This document shows positions 2,946 to 54,542 of a stretch of 64,000 nt of DNA, one piece after another; position 1 is the first letter of the stretch; every line of letters starts with the position of its first letter. The DNA is from Okamejei kenojei. Its lineage: Eukaryota. The stretch covers positions 24,180,001-24,244,000 of the forward strand of contig CM069162.1 in assembly GCA_035221665.1 (NCBI GenBank), read 5' to 3'. The notes beneath the pieces were generated by a model. It saw only the letters and a list, made by a program, of their open reading frames with translations, had not been told where the DNA came from and did no database searches. Both the position numbers and the translations under genes were made by a program.

Positions 2946-3013
2946 CTGGTTTTAGGGGATGTTGTTAACCATTCTTCATGTTTCTCGAATGTTATTAAGT
3001 AAGCTGCAATTTC
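2946..3013 (-). CDS. CAMTA1: Internal coding exon (68 bp) of calmodulin-binding transcription activator 1, CG-1 DNA-binding domain
   Basis: Minus strand reads tttgtctttttcag|GAA ATT GCA GCT TAC TTA ATA ACA TTC GAG AAA CAT GAA GAA TGG TTA ACA ACA TCC CCT AAA ACC AG|gtaag, giving EIAAYLITFEKHEEWLTTSPKT(R) with canonical acceptor and donor. The peptide matches my recall of the vertebrate CAMTA1 CG-1 segment (…RWNTNE-EIAAYLITFEKHEEWLTTSPKTR-PQNGS…); CAMTA2 differs here. Too short for the ORF track. Confidence 0.95.
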
Positions 3014-3196: not shown

Positions 3197-3510
3197 AAGC
3201 CCTGTCCCACTGTAGGAGTTCATTCAAGTATTCTCCCGAGTTTGCCCTGATTCGAACTCGGAGATTTACGGTAATGGCCGCTTGAAGGTACTCGGGGCTC
3301 TCGTGGACATTTTTCAACATGTCCACATGTTGAAAAATCTTCACGAGTCTTCCCGAGCTTACCGCGTTTCCCGAGCACCTGCCGTTAGCGTTACTGGCCG
3401 CTAAGAGACGTCCTCGAGCACCGACGTACATTCTACGTGCTTCCACGAGTTTGATTTTTTTTAAAGCTCGGGAGAGCTCTTGAATGAGCTCGTACAGTGG
3501 GACAGGGCCA
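3197..3510. mobile_element. PIF/Harbinger-like MITE, copy 1
   Basis: TIRs gccctgtcccactgta…tacagtgggacagggc; flanked by TAA and TTA; near-identical copies at 32917 and 54209. Confidence 0.85.
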
Positions 3511-9916: not shown

Positions 9917-10837
9917 ATAAAATTCAAGGCAATTTTAAATCCACCCAAATGATTATTCCATGTTTTCTACTCATTTCCCTAACTTGTTTGCAAACTTTCT
10001 TCTCCATCCACAATTAGGTTGGTACATTGACACTAATAGCATGATTTACATGATATTATTTCTATCTATAAGGATTTCCTTTCTCTGACGGAAAACTGTA
10101 AGATAGCATTCGGAGGCTGTATGATCACTGTAATCATCTTATTCTTCTCTGGTTATTCTAATAAGTACAATTACTTTACCTCTCCCTTTTCTTTCTTAAT
10201 CTTTTCTAAATATGCTATACTCAATAATATTTATTTCATAGCTCTGATTTGCTGCAGCAAAATCCCTGTAATCACAACTATAACTGCTTCCCCACAATGC
10301 ATTATTAACTCCAATTCCCCTGTTATACTTCTGTGAGCACTGCTTTACTGTTTAACTCATATTTGATAGCAATTCCCCTCACTTTATTTTTAACCATCTT
10401 TTTATACCTACATTATTCATTCCTGACTGGCTGCCTTTCATGACACTTCCATGGTCACAGCAGGACCAGGATCATACTCCCTGGAGAATCTGACTCTCTG
10501 TGCCTGCTATCTTTTAACCTTCATTTGTAACCTGATACTTGTCCAAATACAGTTTTTATTAAAATAATGAACAACGCGTTTAAAAAAAAAAGGAGTTTGT
10601 TATCCAGGAGGAAGAAAATGCCGAGGGATTCTTCTGACCTCTCGTCATATTCCGAACAGAATCCCTGAAGAAACCACAATTTCCCCAGGGTTACCATTGA
10701 CTTGCGTGACATTGGAGGAACTGATAGGGGACATTTACATGATGGTGAAATGTTTCTCTTGATCGTAGGCTGGTTAACTTTACTCTCAACTTCTGTGCTC
10801 AAGTCTAATTGCTAAACCAAGGATGTATCAAATATAT

Positions 10838-10967
10838 GTGGAGGAGGGAACTGCAGCTGCAGATGCTGGTTTACACCGAAGATAGACACAAAATGGCGAG
10901 TGACTCAAGGGGTAAGGGTGCACCACTGCAGAAAAGGAATAGGTGATGTTTCCGTTCTTCAGACTGA
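10838..10967 (-). mobile_element. Short Penelope-derived element
   Basis: gggaactgcagctgcagatgctggtttacaccgaagatagacacaaaat…aggaataggtgatgtttccgttcttcagactg; hammerhead stem II deleted. Confidence 0.7.
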
Positions 10968-11039
10968 GAGTTAGAGTAGAGGGGAATTAGAGCTATGAAA
11001 AGGTTCAGAATGTACAACATTTATCTGTGGTAATTCCTG

Positions 11040-11550
11040 GGCTACTCTCCAAGGCAGCAAGGATAATGGACATTCCCCTTTTGCTGCAGATTGGCAAAAG
11101 TAGAGCAAAAGCTGAGGTTAGGTTTACTGAGGTCAGATCGTGGGTGGGCCGTGTAAAGTGAAGGAGAATCGAGACTGGGGTGGGGATGAAAGGGAAACAC
11201 AGAGCGGCGCTGAGGCCAGGCAGATGGAATCAGTTGTAGAGAGGCCAAAGGACATTGGCAGCAAGAAGCAGAGTGATGGAGAATTATCTTCAAAGGGGAT
11301 TATCCTTGGGAATCAGAAGATTCCGACTTCCTGGCAGCAGTCCCAGTCAGGTCAGGTCATTTCTGAAGGCCACATACACATCAGATGTTTCTGTGAGTGG
11401 CATCAAACAATGCACCACATTATGGTGGCTTCCATTCACAGGCACGTCATCTACACAGAAGTGCTAGCAACAAATGTGGCAGGTAGTCTTCCACTCCGAC
11501 CTGAAGATGGCCCTCCAGGCCCAAAGATTTTGTCCCCTCTGACTAAACCT
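11040..11550 (+). mobile_element. Possible old non-LTR retroelement 3' fragment (Vingi/RTE-X-like zinc-knuckle remnant)
   Basis: ORF 11140-11613 contains CFCEWHQTMHHIM, resembling the CxCG…QTxxHI…C knuckle; heavily decayed. Confidence 0.3.
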
Positions 11551-12442
11551 TTTAATATTTTGAAGATCAAGATCAACTCCGATATCAGTTTTTTTTTTAC
11601 TAAATCCTGTTAATACAAGTTGCAATGTTGTTTTTAGTAGTTGCAACTGAATTGCCAGAATAATCTTCCCACACTGCTGTGAACTTTCACTAATGCTTCA
11701 ATGAACCATTCAAAGCCTCTATATTGACACCATGGAGTTAACATTGCTCCATCACCATTACTGAATGAATAGGTGACCGATGCAAAAATCATGCAGATGC
11801 AGAGAGATCATGTTGTGGAAAAACTGTCGGCCCCGGCAGCAGCCAACACACTTCAAAAAAGAACTTAATTAGTTGGACGTTGATTGTCATTTGCAATAAA
11901 TATATACAATTCTTTTAGGTTGGAAGAACAAATCAGTGCTTTCTGAAGAGAAGAGATACGCCTGTGATAAGATAATTGTGCATGGAATCTGGATGCAGGT
12001 CAATGTGTTACGGACAGAAGAAATGTGTTACACAGAAGAAAATAACAGCAACATCCTCGAAGGGGGAGGGCAAGTGCTACTGAACAGTGTTGCATTTTCT
12101 GCATGCTCAGAGCATTTGCTGTTATTATCCTCTTTATATTTGTTCCTAGTAATTGACTGGTCATGTTGATAACAGGCTCTCGTTTGAGATGCTCACAACA
12201 CAGTCAATAATAGTAATCAAGGCACTCCTTAGAACAGTGAAATGAAATGTGATTCATGTAGCAAACAGCAGTACATCTTCCTCACTCATGGATCCCATTG
12301 CCCAAAAGTTGTTCTTCATAAATATGCAGAGAGTGATGGTTGGCTATTTGACTGCACAGGGCATACTTACAAGCTGCCCTTGGCCCTACTGATGGACCAT
12401 GATCATCCAGATATCAGTCTGGAGATGCTAAAGGACAGAACA

Positions 12443-13344
12443 ATAGACAATAGGTGCAGGAGTAGGTCATTCGGCCCTTCGAGCCAGCACCGCCATTCAA
12501 AGTGATCATGGCTGATCATCCTCAATCAGTACCCCGTTCCTGCCTTCTCCGCATATCCCCTGACTATGCTATCTTTAAGAGCCCTATCTATCCCTGTCTT
12601 GAATGTTTCCAGAGAACTGGTCTCCACCACCCTCTGAGGCAGAGAATTCCACATACTCACAACTCTCTGTGAGAAAAAGTGTTTCCTCGTCTCCATTCTA
12701 AATGGCTTACCCCTTATTCTTAAACTGTGGCCCCTGGTTCTGGACTCCCCCAACATCGGGAACATGTTTCCTGCCTCTAGCGTGTCAAACCCTTAATAAT
12801 CTTTTATGTTTCAATAAGATCCTCTCTCATCCTTCTAAACTCCAGAGTATACAAGCCCAGCCACTCCATTCTCTCAGCATATGACAGTCCCGCCATCCCG
12901 GGAATTAACCTTGTAAACCTACGCTGCACTTCCTCAATAGCAAGAATGTCCTTCCTCAAATTAGGGGACCAGAACTGCACACAATACTCCAGGTGTGGTC
13001 TCACTAGGGCCCTATACCACTGCAGAAGGAGCTCTTTGCTCCTATACTCAACTCCTCTTGTTATAAAGGCCAACATGCCATTCACTTTCTTCACTGCTTG
13101 CTGTACCTGTATGCTTAGTTTCAATGACTGATGAACAAGGACCCCCAGATCCCGTTGAACTTCCCCTTTTCCCAACTTGATACCATTTAGATAGTAATCC
13201 GCCTTCCTGTTTTTGCTACCAAAGTGGATAACCTCACATTTATCCAGGTTAAACTGCACCTGCCGTGCATCTGCCCACTCGCCCAACCTGTCCAAGCCAC
13301 CCTGGCATTCACTTAGCATCCTCCTCACAGTTCGCACTGCCACC
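12443..13344 (-). mobile_element. 5'-truncated CR1 LINE, relatively young
   Basis: ORF 12804-13400 LDRLGEWA…QFNLDKCEVIHFG…RDLGVLV…LVRPHLEYCVQFWSP and ORF 12526-12765 TRGHSL…FFSQRVV…WNSLP; ends in a ctattgt-type tail; candidate TSD cagaaca at 12436-12442 and 13345-13351. Confidence 0.93.
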
Positions 13345-14264
13345 CAGAACAGCCTTTGTAAGGATTGTTTCAGCTGAGATAGAACAATCAGGTTTCCCAT
13401 TCCGAGCCGATGAATAGAGGCATAAAAAACATCAGTTCACTGGAAGAATTTAATTATCATGTTAATGTTTAGTGGGGTCGCTAATTTTGTTAAACTATCG
13501 TGTCTTGCCCTTGACCCTTCAACTCTTCACTTCTAGATCAATTGGCTTTGACCTCTTTGATAGATGAAATATACGTGCGTCATCCAGAAACATACAAAGG
13601 CAGCATGAGTACATGCGTCACACTTACTTTAAGGTAGCTTTGAGACAAGAATAGCCCACATGCATGCAGATAACTGGAATGGAAATTACTCTCATGTGGT
13701 CCACAGACTTGCACGGCCTTAACTCCTTCAGTTCCAAACCAGCTTTCAAAGACATCTCGCCCATTAATAAGAGATGTTTTGAGAACAGGAGAGGCTAATT
13801 AGCCCTTCCACACCAGGCCTTCTTTGTAGATTCAACCTACCCTCATGCCTTCCCATTGCCTCAGAGCCTGCAACCCACAAACTTTCCACATCCTTACTAT
13901 ATTTCCCAATCTCATATAACCATTCCTGTCCAGTTTCTCACTTTATGTCCCAATGCGGTGTACGCTCTGTATCCCTCAGTACAACCTAGTGACCACGTCT
14001 CAGTTCACTTCTTCCGCCAAGAGCATGTTCATTGTGCCCCATTAACATTGTCCTCCTTGCTAACTAATTCCATAAATTAAAGATAATTGGGTGCATGGAT
14101 AGATTTCCAAATCCATTCCTACTCTCAGTCCAAAACCTGTTACCCTTCTTTGGCACTTGAATATTTTGAGTAGTGCTCTTTTCTCCCACCCTTTGCATGA
14201 TACCATGGGATAATGGTAGCCATTATCAGCCATGATTGAATGGTGAAATAGACTTGATGGGCCA

Positions 14265-14513
14265 AATAGGCTGTGGGCCGAGCATCAAAACTGTGTCTAG
14301 AAATCAACTTTCCTTGTCTCGGAACTACATGAAATTTTGCACAGATTTAGATAAAATATAATTGAGAAGGAAGTCATAACTCTTCAGTGCCAAAAGTTGC
14401 ACATTAATTAATTAAACTAATTAGAAAATGAGATAAAAAAAGTAAGCACCATCTAGTGTCCAAAGCCAATATTACACCATGGGGAGCCTATTTCCGTGGT
14501 GCAGTCTCTTTAA
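14265..14513. mobile_element. Possible TTAA-targeting (Kolobok/T2-like) non-autonomous DNA element, one intact end
   Basis: Ends ggtgcagtctct|ttaa (minus strand TTAA-AGAGACTGC); internal atgaaattttgcacag; other end not clearly defined. Confidence 0.35.
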
Positions 14514-14649
14514 ACCATATATTATTATACCATATATATATGACTTGTGAATATGACTGCAATCATATATAATCATGTATAATTATATTATATAAAAATA
14601 ATATAATGAATATTATTGTGAGGTTTTTTTTTAATGAGACTGCCGCAGA

Positions 14650-15220
14650 GGTCCTCTTGAACCAGCCTAATTAATAGGTGAGTGCAGTTCCTGTTGGTTC
14701 CCCCGTTTACTGAAACCCACTGACTGCCAGTGTGCAAAGTGGGGGTCACAGCCATAGTGGGACTGGGGTAGTGCCAGGCTGGGGGGTAGATCAAGGCAGG
14801 AAAATGCCTAACCCTAACTCGCCCCCCCTTCCAGAGCTGCCCACGGCTGGGGCTGGAGCTGGAGCCACTTTGGGACCGGCTGCGGGCTCTGTACATGTGG
14901 CCCTGCAGCGCGTCCACTCGGCCAGCATGCCCTTCTGGTGGTGATGATGGTGGGGAACAGCACTGCCCTGCTCGCCGTCCGGGCCGCCTTCAGCACTCCC
15001 ATAGCGCCGGCTCCGTCAGACCGCCCGCTCGCTTGCTGCAACACCGGCCAACCGACAGCCCGACTGACCCCTCGCAGCACTCACCGGAGACCCGGCCCGA
15101 CGTTCACCACCGGTGGCCCGACGCTCACCGCCCGACCAATCCTCCACAGCATCCATCGGCCTACCGACAAGCCCGACCGACAGACGGATCAATTGACCGA
15201 CACTGACCCTAACCCTAACT
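14650..15220. repeat. GC/CpG-rich segment with CCGAC micro-repeats and two short CCCTAA doublets
   Basis: cctaaccctaac at about 14807-14818 and ccctaaccctaac at about 15207-15219; repeated ccgac(a/c/t/g) motifs at 15050-15200. Confidence 0.6.
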
Positions 15221-16098
15221 CTACATTTGTTATTTATCATTTTTATTTAACAGTTCACATTATAACTTTATAAAGATAAATCAATTGAAAAACAAAATGA
15301 TCAGCAAGGTGAGCATGACCTTTATTCCTTGGAAACCTTGCTATTGTTTTGATGTAATGAGGAGGCAGCCATGATCGCAGAGTCCTCACTGTCTAGCAAC
15401 CATAAAACAAAGCGCGGGATTGGTCAATTTGCTTCCGACCTCAATGTCAAACGTGCATTGATTGGGCAATTACTACTCAGAAAATGTGAGGTTTTTCTCA
15501 TATTTCTTAAAAGTGTGCAGGTTTTGTTGTTGATGAGTTTCAGGTATGGTTTATATATTTTTACACAACATGTTAGTTCCGTGAGTTGGGTCACGAACCT
15601 GAATGAAAAAGCTCCTCGGCCCACTGCCTAAAATGACTTAATTCTGCTCCTACAACTTATTAACTTATAATGAAAGACTTCACCATCTCTCAGGGCAAGT
15701 GTAGGTTGAACTGAGCTCTCAGAAAATGATAATTTCCTTCTTTCGCCCCCCCCCCCCCCCTCCTTCCACCCAGTCGCAGTAACCTCTATGCACATGTAGG
15801 TGAAGGACTTGATTGCATAATCCATGAAACACATTTAAACTCATCATGGATATCTTTGCCAAGACTGTGAGCAGTATAACAGTCAGCACCACAGGACACT
15901 ATAGTTTTAGCCCTGCTGAATCACAGTGGTTAGTCATGATCATTTGAAGTCCAGATCAGACATGACTATGATATCTTGTGCAGAAATACAGCCTGCTGAT
16001 TCCCCTGTTTTAGCCTTGTTTAGGAAGAGGAATTACTTTGAAGAGATATTGATGGAAATTCAACAACAGTGGAAACATAACAGAGGAGAAAAAGAGAA

Positions 16099-16154
16099 AA
16101 AGGATTGGTGGCTTCTTTTAGGTTGGAAGAACAAATCAGTGCCACCAATCCTTT
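16099..16154. repeat. Perfect 14-bp inverted repeat enclosing a copy of 11910-11939
   Basis: aaaggattggtggc (16099-16112) and gccaccaatccttt (16141-16154); 16113-16142 is identical to 11910-11939. Confidence 0.95.
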
Positions 16155-16699
16155 ATGGGGGCATAATGAAACAGAATTAAAGTAACAGCTAAACCTCTGC
16201 TTATTATTTTATTTCTTTGCGTAAAAGATTATTTTAATTCCATTTGCTACATCCCAGTTTATATTCCTGTGGCAAGGCATTAAGTTAAAAGGTGCCATTG
16301 AACGAGTGCTGAAATGAGTTAAGTGGCTGTACTTAACTGCAGATTAAGTGCTCAAGTGTATGACAGCGTTACTGCCGAAGCAACATTTGAGTTTCGTGTC
16401 TGCTTCAGGATTGGTCTTCTAGGCAAGAGCTAGAAGATAACATTTTACTGTTTTATAGCCTTTTATAAGAGAATGGCATCAGAAAGTGATCTGCAACAAA
16501 CAACACTTTCAAAGTGTGATCACTCGGTGGCAGGCACTATATGTGAAGCATGATCCCACAAACACAATGTGACAAATCATCAGACCATCTATTTTAGTGA
16601 TGTTGGTTGGGGTATTAACATTAGCCAATAGAACAGCACAGCACATAAAGTGCAAAGAGTGCAACAAGGTAAATTGGAAGATCGGGTAATTCATCACTC

Positions 16700-17480
16700 A
16701 CATATGAGAGGCGAGTTCACGAGTCAGATAACAGCAGGGAAGAGGCTGTTCATGAATCTGGTGGTACATGCTTTCAAGCTTTTGTCAACTTGGTAAAAGA
16801 CCCTCTTTGGTCCACAGCCTAGGTTCCTTCAGCTGCTGGACATGGGGGGGTGGGGTGTGGTGGAGACACCCCTCAATATAAGGGAAGGGATTCCACGCCA
16901 GTGGGCCACGTGAGGGGCAAAGGTGTTGGGTAAAATTGTGATTTGGGGAAACTGTATTGAATGTATGTGTAGCCTCCCAGAATGTCGGATGGAGTTTTGT
17001 AAGGCTCATGTATTGTATATATTTACTTGTCGAATAAAGTCTATTTTGAATTTTTTTTTTTAAATTGTCTAATGGGTGTGAGTCATCCTTGATTACAAGA
17101 CAAGTAGATGGAGTCAATGGAAGGAGACTGGTTTATGTGATGGTCTCCGATCACAATTCTCTGCAATACCTTGTGGTCTTGGGCAGACCCGTTGCCAAAA
17201 AACAAGATGTGATGCATTCCAATACGATGCTTTCAATGATGGAAGTGTGGACATTGGTAAGAGTCATTGGAGACATGCTTACTTTACTAAGCCTTCTGAG
17301 GAAGGAGAGGCATTAGTGTGATTTCTTGGTCATTGTTGTCAATGTGACTGGACCAGGACAAATTGTTGATGATGTTTACTCTTGGGAACATGAGGCTCTT
17401 GACCTTTTCTACTTTAGTACCACTGATACCTGGGGAAAGTACTCTGCACAACTTCCTGAAGTCATTGACCAACTCGCATT
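16700..17480 (-). mobile_element. Rex1/Babar-type LINE fragment, interrupted by a plus-strand L1/Tx1-like 3' end (about 16790-17060)
   Basis: The minus-strand translation gives …VEKVKSLMFPRVNIINNLSWSSHID…, matching the Rex1 motif VExFKFLGVxIxxxLSWxxHI. Also gataacagcagggaagaggctgttcatgaatctggtggta. Confidence 0.7.
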
Positions 17481-18199
17481 GTTTTTGTGAACATAGACGA
17501 TAAGGTTGTTGTCTTTTCTCCTTGTTACTCTCTCTCTCTCTCTCTTCTTCTTGTACATAACTGACCTCAATCATCCCAATACCTCCTTCCACTTCAGTTG
17601 GAAAACACATACGATTTGTTATAAATAGACTGCCTCCAACCATCTGGAGAATACAGAGGTCACTCCCAATGTCCTACCACAGTCAAGGAGTCTGGCTGCT
17701 CCTCCCTGTTGAGTTGAACAGTAATGACTGTTTTGTAATGTAGCCTGTAAGGGATAATTGGAATTTAGATGTTAAATTAATTTAAATGTAATCTCAGCTC
17801 GCCAACATGAGGAAATATGAAATGCATTGGCCTTCAGGGTTAGAGTTTCACAGCATCAATTTATAACTGTTTCTATCTTCGAGTAGCCACAATAAAATAT
17901 TACTGCACATTTCAACTCTGCCATGAAACCACCAGGATTTTGTTGCCTCTCTGCATTGATACCACCATAGCATTTACTCTTTTGAATTTCCATTTTTAAC
18001 TCCTGAACTCGCAATTTCCCCTTCTCCTGCTGGTCTTCCTATCCTTATATCACCCAGTGACTGAAACAAAGCTCACCATAACATCGTGTACAATCTTAAC
18101 TTTAACACTGCATAAGTTCCTCCCTCTCCCCTTCCACCACCAAGTCCTGGATTCATCTCAGTCACTACTTTCTCAGTAAATCAAACAGTAATTTTATAC

Positions 18200-18860
18200 A
18201 GGCAGTTGCTGGAATCGTGAGCAAAACACAAACTGCTGGAGCGGGTCGGGCGGCATCCATGGAGGGACTAGACGGATGATATTTCAGATCGGGAACCTTC
18301 TTCAGATTGATGGGAGTCGAGGGGGGACAGCTGGTAGAGAGAGGTGAGGAGATCCAGGTGAGGAGGGTTTGGTTGGCACCCACCTTTACCCAATCCCCCC
18401 TTTCCCACTGGTGTACACCCTTCTTTCCACTCCCCACCCACCCTCCCCTCCCCTCCCCCGGTCCTTGTCAATTTGATGCTTTCCCCTCCTCCACCTCCAA
18501 TGTTTGCTCATCTCCCGCCCCTCCCTACTCCAGAGATCCGCCATTTTCTATTCCCCCATTCCCATTTGCTTCTGCCCACCAACACTCCTCCAGCTTTACA
18601 TCCCACTCCCCATCTTTCTTCATCGTCACATTTCCACCATTTGTACCCTTTTGTCTTCTTCACCTCCAGCCTTGGTTACTTTCTCCATCCTTGCATCTCT
18701 TTGCTTTTGTAGAAGTCCTCCTTCCCTCTCCCATCTGACATCCATCAATCGGCCCCAACTCGCCTGGATATACCTAGTGATGCCAGCTCTTGCCCTACCT
18801 TTTCCCCTCACCTATTTCCACCAACTATCTTCTTCCCTCTGCAGTCTGCAGGGACCTGAC
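18200..18860. mobile_element. Penelope-derived remnant with inverted halves; hammerhead core on minus strand at 18278-18305
   Basis: Minus strand reads CTGAAGA-AGGT-TCCCG-ATCT-GAAA-TA-TC; pyrimidine-rich PLE 3' UTR-like sequence follows on the plus strand. Confidence 0.65.
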
Positions 18861-19129
18861 CTTATGGGTTTGTATTTGCAATGTGGGTTTTCTTTCAGAT
18901 TGCAAATGAATATATGGTGCACTCATTTTCCATGTTTACCATAAATTGTTATTGGTAATTTGTTTCTCTAAACAGATTGAATTCAAATTAATTCAGGTTT
19001 ATTGAGGCTGAGACATGCATAAGCAATCTACAGCAATGATTAACCACCCTTACAAAGATATAAATACCCATCCATCGGCCCACACCCACATTAATGCATG
19101 GTTGCACTGAACTGACACATAACAGCTCT

Positions 19130-20560
19130 TATTTATATACGTAGCACCTTTAATGTAACATAATTAACGCAAGCTTCTTCACAGGAAACCATTTAGATTA
19201 AAAATGTTGCACTCAGTCACATTAGGACACCTTAGAGCAGAGATCAAATGATGTGGGTTTTAAGGAAAGACTTAAAAGAGGAGAATGCCAGAATTAATGG
19301 GCCACAGATAACTCAAAAGGTTGCAAGGTTGAGGGAGGCTGCAGTCAAGGAAGAATTGAGGCTATCGAAAAGTTTGAAAATATAGTTGAGACTCTTAAAA
19401 CAAGGCATTGTTCAACTGGTCCTATGTAGGGCAGAAAGTGTAGTTATGGTGGCTGTAAGTTAGAACATAGCCATGAGCTTTGGATGAGTTCAAATCTGCA
19501 GAATGTGTTTAAGATAGGCTGGGCACGGTAGCATGGAATTAGTCAAACATAGGTAGCAAGGATTGACTCAAAAAGCTGGAGTAACTCAGCGGGATAGGCA
19601 GCATCTGTGAAGAGAAGGAATGGGTGACGTTTCGGGTCGAGACCCTTTTGTGTCTATCTTCGATTTAAACCAGCATCTGCAGTTCTTTGCCACACAATAG
19701 GTAGCAAGGACATAGATGAGGGGCTTCAGTAGCAGATAGGCAGGGCCAGGTGATATTACTGGAGGTGGAAATAGGCTGTCTTAGAGATGCCACAGATAAA
19801 TCACTCAAAGCATCTCAGGGTCTAGAATGATACTAGCGTTGCTAATAATCTGGATCAAGTTCATGCAATTCCTAGCACCAGCGAAGAGGGTTTGCGATAG
19901 GGACTTAAAGCAATGCTTTTCATCCTCCCAATATTTGGTGCGAGAAAATCTCTACACATCCACTGAGTGCTGGATACATAGTCTGACAAAAATGGTTGTC
20001 AAATAAAAATGGATGTCATCGGCATGTCCTCAGATGATATTGCAACGGTGCAGCATGTTGATGAAAGGTAAGTAGAAGCCAAGGAGACATAAGCGATGCA
20101 GGCGCTGGAATCAAAGCAAGCGGACAGGTGCAGGAACTCAGCAGACCAGGCAGCATCTGCAGAGGGACGGTGCTGAAGGGTCTCGACCCGAAAGGTGATT
20201 GTCTATTTCCTGCATTGTGGCAGGACTGGAGACTTGACTGGAATAATTCAAACAAGGACTTTGGGTAAAATTAGCCAAACTTGGAAGGCTACAACAGTTA
20301 AAAGACACTAGAGAGTGCAGGAAGGCTGGAGATAGTGTGAGGGTGACAAGGTCAGAGGGTCAAGGGTTTGTTTTGCGGCTGGGTCCATGACATCAGATTA
20401 AGTTCGCCAGGGGAGTAGCTGAAGTGAGAAATCTATTTGGAAGATCTTCCTGCATGGAGGACAAGGAGGTTGGATGGTCAGCACAGTTTCGTTGGAATAG
20501 TGTCTTGGGGCAGAAGTGAGTATATATAGACAAGCTCATTTTGAGTTGGCTTAAGCAGAG
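19130..20560 (-). mobile_element. Old L2-type LINE, degraded, hosting two Penelope-derived inserts
   Basis: Starts atttatatacgtagcacctttaatgtaaca…cttcacagg (L2 3' end, inverted); gtcatcggcat and ggagtagctgaagtgagaa segments resemble inverted RT sequence. Confidence 0.6.
19563..19696. mobile_element. Fold-back Penelope-derived element with 14-bp TSD
   Basis: TSD ataggtagcaagga at 19549-19562 and 19697-19710; the inverted arm breaks at gacgtttcgggtcgagaccc. Confidence 0.85.
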
Positions 20561-22982: not shown

Positions 22983-23633
22983 NNNNNNNNNNNNNNNNNN
23001 NNNNNNNNNNNNNNNNNNNNNNNNNNNNNNNNNNNNNNNNNNNNNNNNNNNNNNNNNNNNNNNNNNNNNNNNNNNNNNNNNNNNNNNNNNNNNNNNNNNN
23101 NNNNNNNNNNNNNNNNNNNNNNNNNNNNNNNNNNNNNNNNNNNNNNNNNNNNNNNNNNNNNNNNNNNNNNNNNNNNNNNNNNNNNNNNNNNNNNNNNNNN
23201 NNNNNNNNNNNNNNNNNNNNNNNNNNNNNNNNNNNNNNNNNNNNNNNNNNNNNNNNNNNNNNNNNNNNNNNNNNNNNNNNNNNNNNNNNNNNNNNNNNNN
23301 NNNNNNNNNNNNNNNNNNNNNNNNNNNNNNNNNNNNNNNNNNNNNNNNNNNNNNNNNNNNNNNNNNNNNNNNNNNNNNNNNNNNNNNNNNNNNNNNNNNN
23401 NNNNNNNNNNNNNNNNNNNNNNNNNNNNNNNNNNNNNNNNNNNNNNNNNNNNNNNNNNNNNNNNNNNNNNNNNNNNNNNNNNNNNNNNNNNNNNNNNNNN
23501 NNNNNNNNNNNNNNNNNNNNNNNNNNNNNNNNNNNNNNNNNNNNNNNNNNNNNNNNNNNNNNNNNNNNNNNNNNNNNNNNNNNNNNNNNNNNNNNNNNNN
23601 NNNNNNNNNNNNNNNNNNNNNNNNNNNNNNNNN
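22983..23633. other. Assembly gap (651 N)
   Basis: Run of N. Confidence 1.
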
Positions 23634-25363: not shown

Positions 25364-25535
25364 CAGATACAAAACGCTGGAGTAACTCAGCGGGACAGGC
25401 AGCATCTCTGGAGAGAAGGAATGGGTGACATTTTGGGGTTCGAAACATCACCCATTCCTTCTCCCCAAAGATGCTGCCTGTCCCGCTGAGTTACTCCATC
25501 ATCAGTGTAAACCAGCATTTGCTGGTCCTTCTTAC
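25364..25535. mobile_element. Fold-back Penelope-derived element inserted in a minus-strand DeuSINE remnant
   Basis: Arms tggagtaactcagcgggacaggcagcatct…gaaggaatgggtga and tcacccattccttctc…agatgctgcctgtcccgctgagttactcca. Confidence 0.85.
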
Positions 25536-40692: not shown

Positions 40693-40910
40693 GTAGACAA
40701 AATTGCTGGAGAAACTCAGTGGGTGAGGCAGCATCTATGAAGCGATGGAAATAGGCAACGTTTCGGGTCGAAACCCTTCAGGTCTGAAGAAGGGTTCCGA
40801 CCCGAAACGTTGCCTATTTCCTTCACTCCATAGATGCTGCCTCACCCGCTGAGTATCTCCAGCGTTTTAGTCTACCTTCGATTTTCCAGCATCTGCAGTT
40901 CCTTCTTAAA
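40693..40910. mobile_element. Fold-back Penelope-derived element with 14-bp TSD, inserted in a CR1 3' fragment (about 40660-41136)
   Basis: Inverted arms of ~90 bp at 40693-40781 and 40784-40875; TSD caacttttt(c/t)atat at 40679-40692 and 40911-40924. Confidence 0.9.
40780..40815 (+). ncRNA. Minimal type I hammerhead ribozyme motif
   Basis: AGGU-CUGAAGA-A-GGGU-UCCG-ACCC-GAAA-CG-UU-GCCU: intact core, 4-bp stem II, palindromic ACGU in place of stem III, 4-bp stem I. Predicted cleavage 3' of 40811. Confidence 0.75.
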
Positions 40911-49151: not shown

Positions 49152-49329
49152 GTAGACAAAAATGCTGGAGAAACTCAGCGGGGTGAGGCAGCATCTGTGG
49201 GGCGAAGCAATAGGTGACGTTTCGGGTCACCTATTCCTTCGCCCCACAGATGCTGCCTCACCCACTGAGTTGCTCCAACATTTTTGTCCACCTTTGATTT
49301 TTCCAGCATCTGCAGCTCTTTCTTAAACA
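49152..49329. mobile_element. Fold-back Penelope-derived element with 15-bp TSD
   Basis: TSD ctccctctggaggag at 49137-49151 and 49330-49344; ~70-bp arms joined at ataggtgacgtttcgggtcacctat. Confidence 0.9.
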
Positions 49330-54208: not shown

Positions 54209-54542
54209 TGGGGCTGTCCCACTGTACGAGCTAATTCAAGAGTTCTCCCAATTCGAACTCGGAGAATTACGGTAATAGCCGCTCGTAGGTACTCGGGGCT
54301 CTCGGGGACATTTTTCAACACGTTGAAAAATCTTCACGAGTCTTCCCGAGCTTACCGCGTTTCCCGAGTACTGCCGTTAGCGTTACGAGCCGCTAAGAGA
54401 CGTCCCGAGCTCCGACGTACCCAATACGTACATTCCACGTGCTTACCACGAGTTTGATTTTTTTTTTAAACTCGGGAGAGCTCTTGAATTAGCTCGTACA
54501 GTGGGACAGCCCCATAACTGTTCATACAGTGGGACAGCCCCT
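54209..54542. mobile_element. PIF/Harbinger-like MITE, copy 3, with duplicated right end
   Basis: Perfect 34-bp TIR tggggctgtcccactgtacgagctaattcaagag; TTA at 54206-54208 and 54543-54545; second terminus at 54524-54542. Confidence 0.9.

Follow-up and report, generated by a model that had tools for sequence, protein, structure and literature searches.

In the 64,000 nucleotides analysed here (the window), which are eukaryotic intron DNA with many dispersed repeats of types resembling those of a skate or ray, a 30-nt piece occurs at two places 4203 bases apart, and at the second of these it fills the loop of a perfect 14-bp hairpin. On balance we favour an origin in a single germline event of repair or replication restart at about position 16112, shared by multiple species and probably neutral. 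The cassette is most likely an ordinary one-off repair scar in a large vertebrate intron and not a working element. As a scar it would provide a clean natural example of a patch drawn from two templates, with a capture over kilobase range followed by fold-back from a 2-bp primer, in multiple related fish species.

Anatomy of the duplicate and its hairpin

The coding exon near the start of the window is matched by 57 library proteins at E<=0.001, and three long protein matches, 96% identical over the 68-nt exon, carry the CG-1, TIG and ankyrin domains of the CAMTA architecture. We take it to be exon 4 of CAMTA1, not of CAMTA2. It is the only exon recognised in an unsystematic inspection of the window. 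Both copies of the 30-mer, site A and site B (Table 1), lie in the intron 5' of this exon; the host gene belongs to the CAMTA family and is encoded on the minus strand, so that in the sense direction site B is transcribed earlier than site A. Within the 30-mer there is an acceptor-like pyrimidine run ending in AG (11910-11920 and 16113-16123), but it reads on the + strand, opposite to the host gene. Each site falls inside a short + strand open frame behind this motif. Pfam returned no family for any of the three peptides tried, a weak test, as the true exon was also missed.

Table 1. Coordinates of the duplicate, its hairpin and the host exon in the window
Feature	Position	Strand	Basis
Site A, presumed donor, in unique intronic DNA	11910..11939	+	exact match to 16113-16142
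Site B, 30-nt copy of site A, comprising the 28-nt loop and the GC common to the right arm	16113..16142	+	exact match
Left arm, presumably the flank first present at the break and the fold-back template	16099..16112	+	reverse complement of 16141-16154
GC primer, 2 nt, with which the donor copy finishes and which can pair with 16111-16112	16141..16142	+	common to donor end and start of inverted copy
12-nt inverted copy of 16099-16110 in the left flank, presumably made by fold-back or by a template switch to the opposite strand	16143..16154	+	sequence match
Weak internal stem of 5 bp (16113-16117 pairing with 16127-16131) where the copied piece begins; the donor has it too	16113..16131	+	DNA folding
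Coding exon, 68 nt, CG-1 domain of a CAMTA-family protein	2946..3013	-	open frame between AG and GT

The two sites are identical at 30 of 30 positions on the same strand, and their flanks (20 bases on each side) agree at 5/20 positions on the left and 4/20 on the right, which is the level of chance. The arms are perfect reverse complements over 14 of 14 positions, with pairing that ends immediately outside and inside them, and the GC that closes the 30-mer also forms the opening two bases of the right arm. An earlier reading of the sequence alone (the sequence-only reading) had described a 30-mer present twice in one orientation with unrelated flanks, bracketed at site B by exact 14-bp arms with a GC overlap on the right, and this description holds in full. 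It had also placed the odds of a chance match at roughly 1e-9 to 1e-8 for random sequence; the computed expectation is 4.2e-9 exact 30-mer pairs. A search of the window that allows up to three mismatches returns only the two matches, a number reached in 0 of 100 shuffles, and the 30-mer is the only non-overlapping exact repeat longer than 16 nt in the unmasked DNA; in order-3 Markov simulations (n=60) the longest direct repeat measured 14-19 nt. The probability that 12 further pairs would close the loop of site B by chance is 8.4e-8. Because both chance figures are so low, the copy and the hairpin must have one cause.

The hairpin at site B folds far above shuffled sequences on both strands (z -3.5 and -3.7), and the internal 5-bp stem, at -1.1 kcal/mol (z 0.21), is not stronger than in shuffles. 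Hairpins with arms of at least 10 bp number 18 in the unmasked DNA of the window against 7.7 expected, an excess that carries no inference, some of them probably lying in repeats that escaped the mask. Site B is the only one of the 18 whose loop has a match longer than 15 nt elsewhere, the next best reaching 15 nt.

Read along the + strand, site B consists of the left flank, the 30 nt of site A, a 12-nt reverse complement of the left flank and the right flank, so that every base of 16113-16154 is accounted for by two templates with a 2-nt overlap and sharp ends. The first (left) junction has 0 nt of visible microhomology. The second template is entered via the shared GC, and the inverted match ends after 16154, inside a T run. 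There is no poly(A/T) tail at site B, and the right junction is formed by the 2-nt GC overlap with its 12-nt templated filler. The left arm would be the older one, because the 2-nt primer overlap exists only for synthesis in the + direction.

This anatomy can be read as the outcome of two steps. In the first, a free 3' end at 16112 would have changed templates, moving 4.2 kb within the intron to a site from which 30 nt (11910-11939) would have been copied in the same orientation. In the second, where the junction is observed and the process is reconstructed, the new GC end would have paired with the GC at 16111-16112, whether within one strand or across to the opposite strand of a sister, and 12 nt of the left flank would have been copied backwards before rejoining, leaving the perfect 14-bp hairpin as a by-product. 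The internal 5-bp stem could have cut the open loop to 9 nt during the fold-back, and the T run at the end of the copy could have supplied microhomology for the final join. Such an event would work like a polymerase-theta or SD-MMEJ templated insertion superimposed on a proximal repair-mediated duplication, with a presumed order of steps and a presumed enzyme. Against a single event stand the geometry of a 28-nt loop across a 2-nt primer, which is not a favoured one, and a first junction with no visible primer.

That blunt first junction would also be expected if a free 30-nt oligonucleotide from site A, either an excision-repair product or a replication flap, had been ligated at its 5' end and extended at its 3' end by fold-back, and the length equals that of the ~30-nt excision-repair product (PMC9023299). 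We think it very unlikely that the cassette arose in this way, as a single case cannot establish a length rule, microhomology may hide inside the 30-mer, and published proximal duplications vary widely in length, with a mean of 162 bp above a 50-bp cut-off (PMC2671141). A literature search on the capture of excised oligonucleotides at breaks gave no paper on the topic among the titles listed. An empty allele with a blunt first junction, together with many patches whose lengths peaked near 30 nt, would point to capture of free excision products, and the cassette would then matter more.

If the 30-mer is removed from site B, what remains is a spacer-less 26-bp palindrome, again perfect, a feature that the sequence-only reading missed. 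The inverted repeat may on this ground have come first, as a 26-bp palindrome at 16099-16154 that broke centrally and received a patch of 28-30 nt copied over a distance of 4.2 kb, and the repeat copies at 3309-3338 and 54310-54331 provide a case of length change at the centre of a palindrome. However, the spacer-less palindrome follows automatically from the GC shared by the 30-mer and the right arm and is hence not independent evidence, and two rare events are required. We regard this order of events as unlikely, if plausible; it would still make the cassette a neutral repair scar, though one of two events.

Both sites in contigs from other runs

Of the 24 runs listed, 20 contain part of 10000-19550, from six organisms, and four of the 24, one each of organisms A, B, D and F, were compared over 11760-16420 as contigs, not raw reads. 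In run X1 (organism A) one contig, assembled separately, covers 15773-16420 with 1 substitution (15867) and 0 gaps, and it contains the cassette letter for letter. Over two other unique stretches the same run differs from the window at 6/691 and 7/980 letters, so that it represents another haplotype, another individual or a close species. Run X10 (organism D, ~4.8% diverged) has a contig over 15642-16419 with 10 gap letters, of which 2 fall at 16365. At most 8 unplaced gap letters can then lie over site B, which means that no 30- or 42-nt piece is missing there; the length of site B is kept, and some of the 19 substitutions in the region may fall in the cassette. The cassette is real and common to related species, and its age is at least that of the split from organism D.

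These contigs settle the question of a local assembly artefact, which the sequence-only reading had listed among its options. The window does come from a gapped assembly, with an assembly gap of 651 N at 22983-23633, and it was contigs, not raw reads, that were compared. We nevertheless assign an artefact a next to negligible probability, given the gap-free contig of run X1 and the contig of run X10, in another organism, which spans the site at the same length; together they rule this candidate out.

The two remaining runs are less direct at site B. Run X18 (organism F) has a contig over 15639-16420 that lacks 29 letters net, all of them deletions, which depth arithmetic leaves unplaced, short chance matches adding similar amounts. 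The number is near the 28-30 predicted if a palindrome stood at 16099-16154 before the patch, but the 29 letters may belong to 15639-15815, a stretch of C-run and old repeat that probably also accounts for the 8 unplaced gap letters of run X10. In run X6 (organism B), of which about 91/100 was read, there is no long contig over 15816-16420; this run covers both other unique stretches, and the absence may reflect the unread part or a real deletion. Neither of the two outgroup runs that cover site B, X10 and X18, shows a placed gap of 30-42 nt that would mark the empty site, and this counts against the single event that we favour. The proposal in the sequence-only reading of a templated insertion with fold-back synthesis agrees with the anatomy of the junctions and with published classes and is the one we favour, though the empty site is not seen in X10 or X18.

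At site A one single-copy contig spans the locus in all four runs, with no 30-nt gap. In run X6 the 30-mer itself carries a substitution, at 11916; in run X18 the DNA beside it is short of 1 letter at 11940 and of 18 letters at 11951, so that site A has changed within or beside the 30-mer in organisms B and F, which supports the single event. The opposite direction of copying, in which an old hairpin already possessed its loop and the exposed loop templated an insertion at site A, would explain why the shared piece falls on the loop, which is what copying from exposed single-stranded DNA should produce. There is very little chance that this is correct, since site A is intact in all four runs, the two most distant organisms included, and the origin of the perfect hairpin would be left unexplained.

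Depth at 11916 is about 21-34 in all four runs, and for the three runs covering site B the bins there have 24-36, in comparison with thousands to millions in true repeats nearby. At 11916 no extra contig indicates a third copy in any of the four runs, and the extra depth over site B in run X1 is about half of what one additional 30-nt copy would contribute. About 13-15% of the window is repetitive by self-comparison alone, which makes it conceivable that the two sites derive from a dispersed repeat, whether of low or high copy number, or from a mobile element. Yet self-BLAST of the window finds no repeat at either site, where the sequence-only reading had recognised none, and searches for exact matches to the 30-mer gave none among viral contigs and none among metagenome contigs. 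The concern that the 30-mer might belong to a high-copy repeat is thus removed by single-copy depth at both sites; a dispersed repeat or hairpin-type mobile element, which would be multi-copy, is largely refuted, and we consider it extremely unlikely.

Other small rearrangements are present in the window. Just to the right of site A lie an 18-nt tandem duplication (12002-12041) and an 18-nt inverted repeat of 89% identity (12034-12133), so that the neighbourhood of the donor holds several small local changes, tandem, inverted and, with the 18 letters absent from run X18, a difference in length. A dispersed repeat copy at 3309-3338 has a central perfect palindrome that is longer than in the copy at 54310-54331, a lengthening that was probably another small fold-back event. 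Furthermore, one short repeat family forms head-to-head pairs at 25378-25498, 40693-40875 and 49181-49263, and these fold into long hairpins with perfect arms of 16-30 bp.

Divergence, possible selection and the proposed guide-like loop

The segment around site B, 15640-16420, is less diverged than the two nearby unique stretches in each covering run: 19/768 against 81/1667 letters in run X10 (p=0.006), 26/753 against 73/1427 in run X18 (p=0.08) and 1/648 against 13/1671 in run X1 (p=0.13), three tests that share a branch and are not independent. In organisms D and F it has diverged roughly half as much as unique DNA nearby, and a conserved non-coding element may lie in it. The difference suggests that some part of these ~770 bases around site B is constrained, not necessarily the cassette.

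The perfect identity of the copies has to be seen against their age. If the split from organism D is taken to have left ~2.4% change on each lineage, the probability of 0 changes in 86 sites is 0.13-0.23, and selection is therefore not needed if the event is little older than that split. For an event older than about 3.5% per lineage, perfect identity becomes unlikely without selection or conversion.

Whatever its origin, the cassette could by now belong to a regulatory element of the intron that is kept by selection, for example as a duplicated binding site or as a DNA or RNA stem-loop in a constrained stretch. The same-length site B in organism D, the low divergence of the segment and a hairpin above the level of shuffles are all consistent with this. 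On the other side, stability is a by-product of any fold-back copy, as described for template switches in PMC7954356, the low divergence is measured over about 770 bases and is not assignable to a cassette of 56 nt, and the donor has changed in organism B. We hold such selection to be decidedly unlikely. A literature search on a conserved non-coding hairpin in the skate CAMTA1 intron found no paper. Conservation of the cassette across distant rays and sharks would make it matter more.

A second functional proposal, put forward in the sequence-only reading, is that of a guide-like RNA, in which a stem-loop in the pre-mRNA would present its 28-nt loop for pairing with the template DNA strand at site A or with antisense RNA. 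The geometry is possible, as the centroid structure of the minus (sense) strand keeps the loop open, and site B is transcribed before site A at a distance of 4.2 kb. Within the pre-mRNA, though, both copies run in one sense, and for this reason they could not pair directly there; template DNA or antisense RNA would be needed. The 18 hairpins of the window include no second such cassette, and the putative target carries the substitution at 11916 in organism B. Covariance models lend no help either, with 0 Rfam matches at gathering threshold in the 64-kb window and 6 weak matches in 15800-16600 that score 15-22 bits against thresholds of 40-100, at most half of what is required. On these grounds the proposal is not borne out, and the chance that such a guide operates appears minute. 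Equally hard to credit is its strongest form, a selected cis-acting guide in CAMTA pre-mRNA that would be kept across relatives, in a segment with about half the local divergence, and whose 28-nt loop, held open by the 14-bp stem, would invade the template DNA at site A. If it were true, a repair scar would have become a means of RNA-DNA targeting. For a miRNA precursor the structure, with its 14-bp stem and 28-nt loop, falls short of the length required. Among known structured RNAs (miRNA precursors, snoRNAs and other Rfam families) there are 0 covariance-model matches at the curated score in 64 kb.

Relation to known repair products

The single repair event that we favour can be set beside four classes of published sequence change. 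One of these comprises the class 2 templated sequence insertion polymorphisms, which, like the cassette, are breaks patched with sequence from elsewhere that lack the marks of retrotransposition (PMC5110952). They differ in that their donors are distant and their inserts measure 73-414 bp in the experimental set reported there, whereas the donor here lies in the same intron and no polymorphism is seen.

Short-range template switches, as described by the four-point model, share with the cassette a reverse-complement copy of ~12 nt, a perfect inverted repeat and a stable hairpin; in apes the reversed segment has a median of 12 nt, and stable hairpins arise as a by-product (PMC7954356). In that description the templates are local only, in contrast to the present loop, which holds 30 nt from kilobases away.

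The second step resembles the snap-back insertions of TMEJ and SD-MMEJ (PMC11292364, PMC9303309, PMC5068794) in its inverted copy of a flank, its length within the range of 3-30 bp, its 2-bp primer and the perfect inverted repeat that it creates, and patches from multiple templates are known there as well. On a stem-loop, purified human Pol theta begins synthesis at two terminal base pairs, and for mammalian cells there are reports of templated insertions in inverted form, 3-30 bp long (PMC11292364); here 12 nt of the adjacent flank are copied in inverted form after a 2-nt GC. The likeness is weaker for the loop, as snap-back favours loops of about 6 nt (PMC11292364) and use of the primer declines as the loop lengthens (PMC9303309). 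This is a preference and not a strict rule, and of the 28-nt loop found here the weak 5-bp stem could leave 9 nt open. The first template, 4.2 kb away, would also belong to a minority class: among deletion-insertions of C. elegans, 2-3% have a template over 1 kb distant, and in that account snap-back, too, forms a minor class (PMC5068794).

The first step has its counterpart in proximal repair-mediated duplications, which comprise two copies on the same chromosome, less than 5 kb apart and with unrelated flanks, no poly(A) tail, short microhomology with filler, and patches made from two templates (PMC2671141). In humans, two-copy insertions have their donor within 5 kb in 824 of 1,136 cases, the proximal cases inspected have a poly(A/T) tract in 0 of 39, and 20 acceptors are chimeras of two donors; zebrafish has 80 cases of the class (PMC2671141). 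The cassette agrees in having two matches in the window and no extra contig in any of the four runs, a non-tandem donor on the same chromosome at 4203 bases, and a junction of microhomology and filler with no tail. It departs from the class in that its second template is the break's own flank, reversed. It is also shorter, at 30 nt, than the lower limit of 50 bp applied to the class. The 'doublets' of Thomas et al. 2004 reportedly cover a shorter range, into which 30 nt falls. Pace et al. 2009 describe these doublets too, and by their account the 50-bp cut-off is a limit of the method (PMC2671141).

Short ectopic duplications from break repair are also listed for rice in a review (PMC7407515). 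The proximal class is reported in mammals, chicken and zebrafish, with no cartilaginous fish among the genomes listed in PMC2671141. As a scar, the cassette would extend a known repair process to another lineage, with the process itself unchanged.
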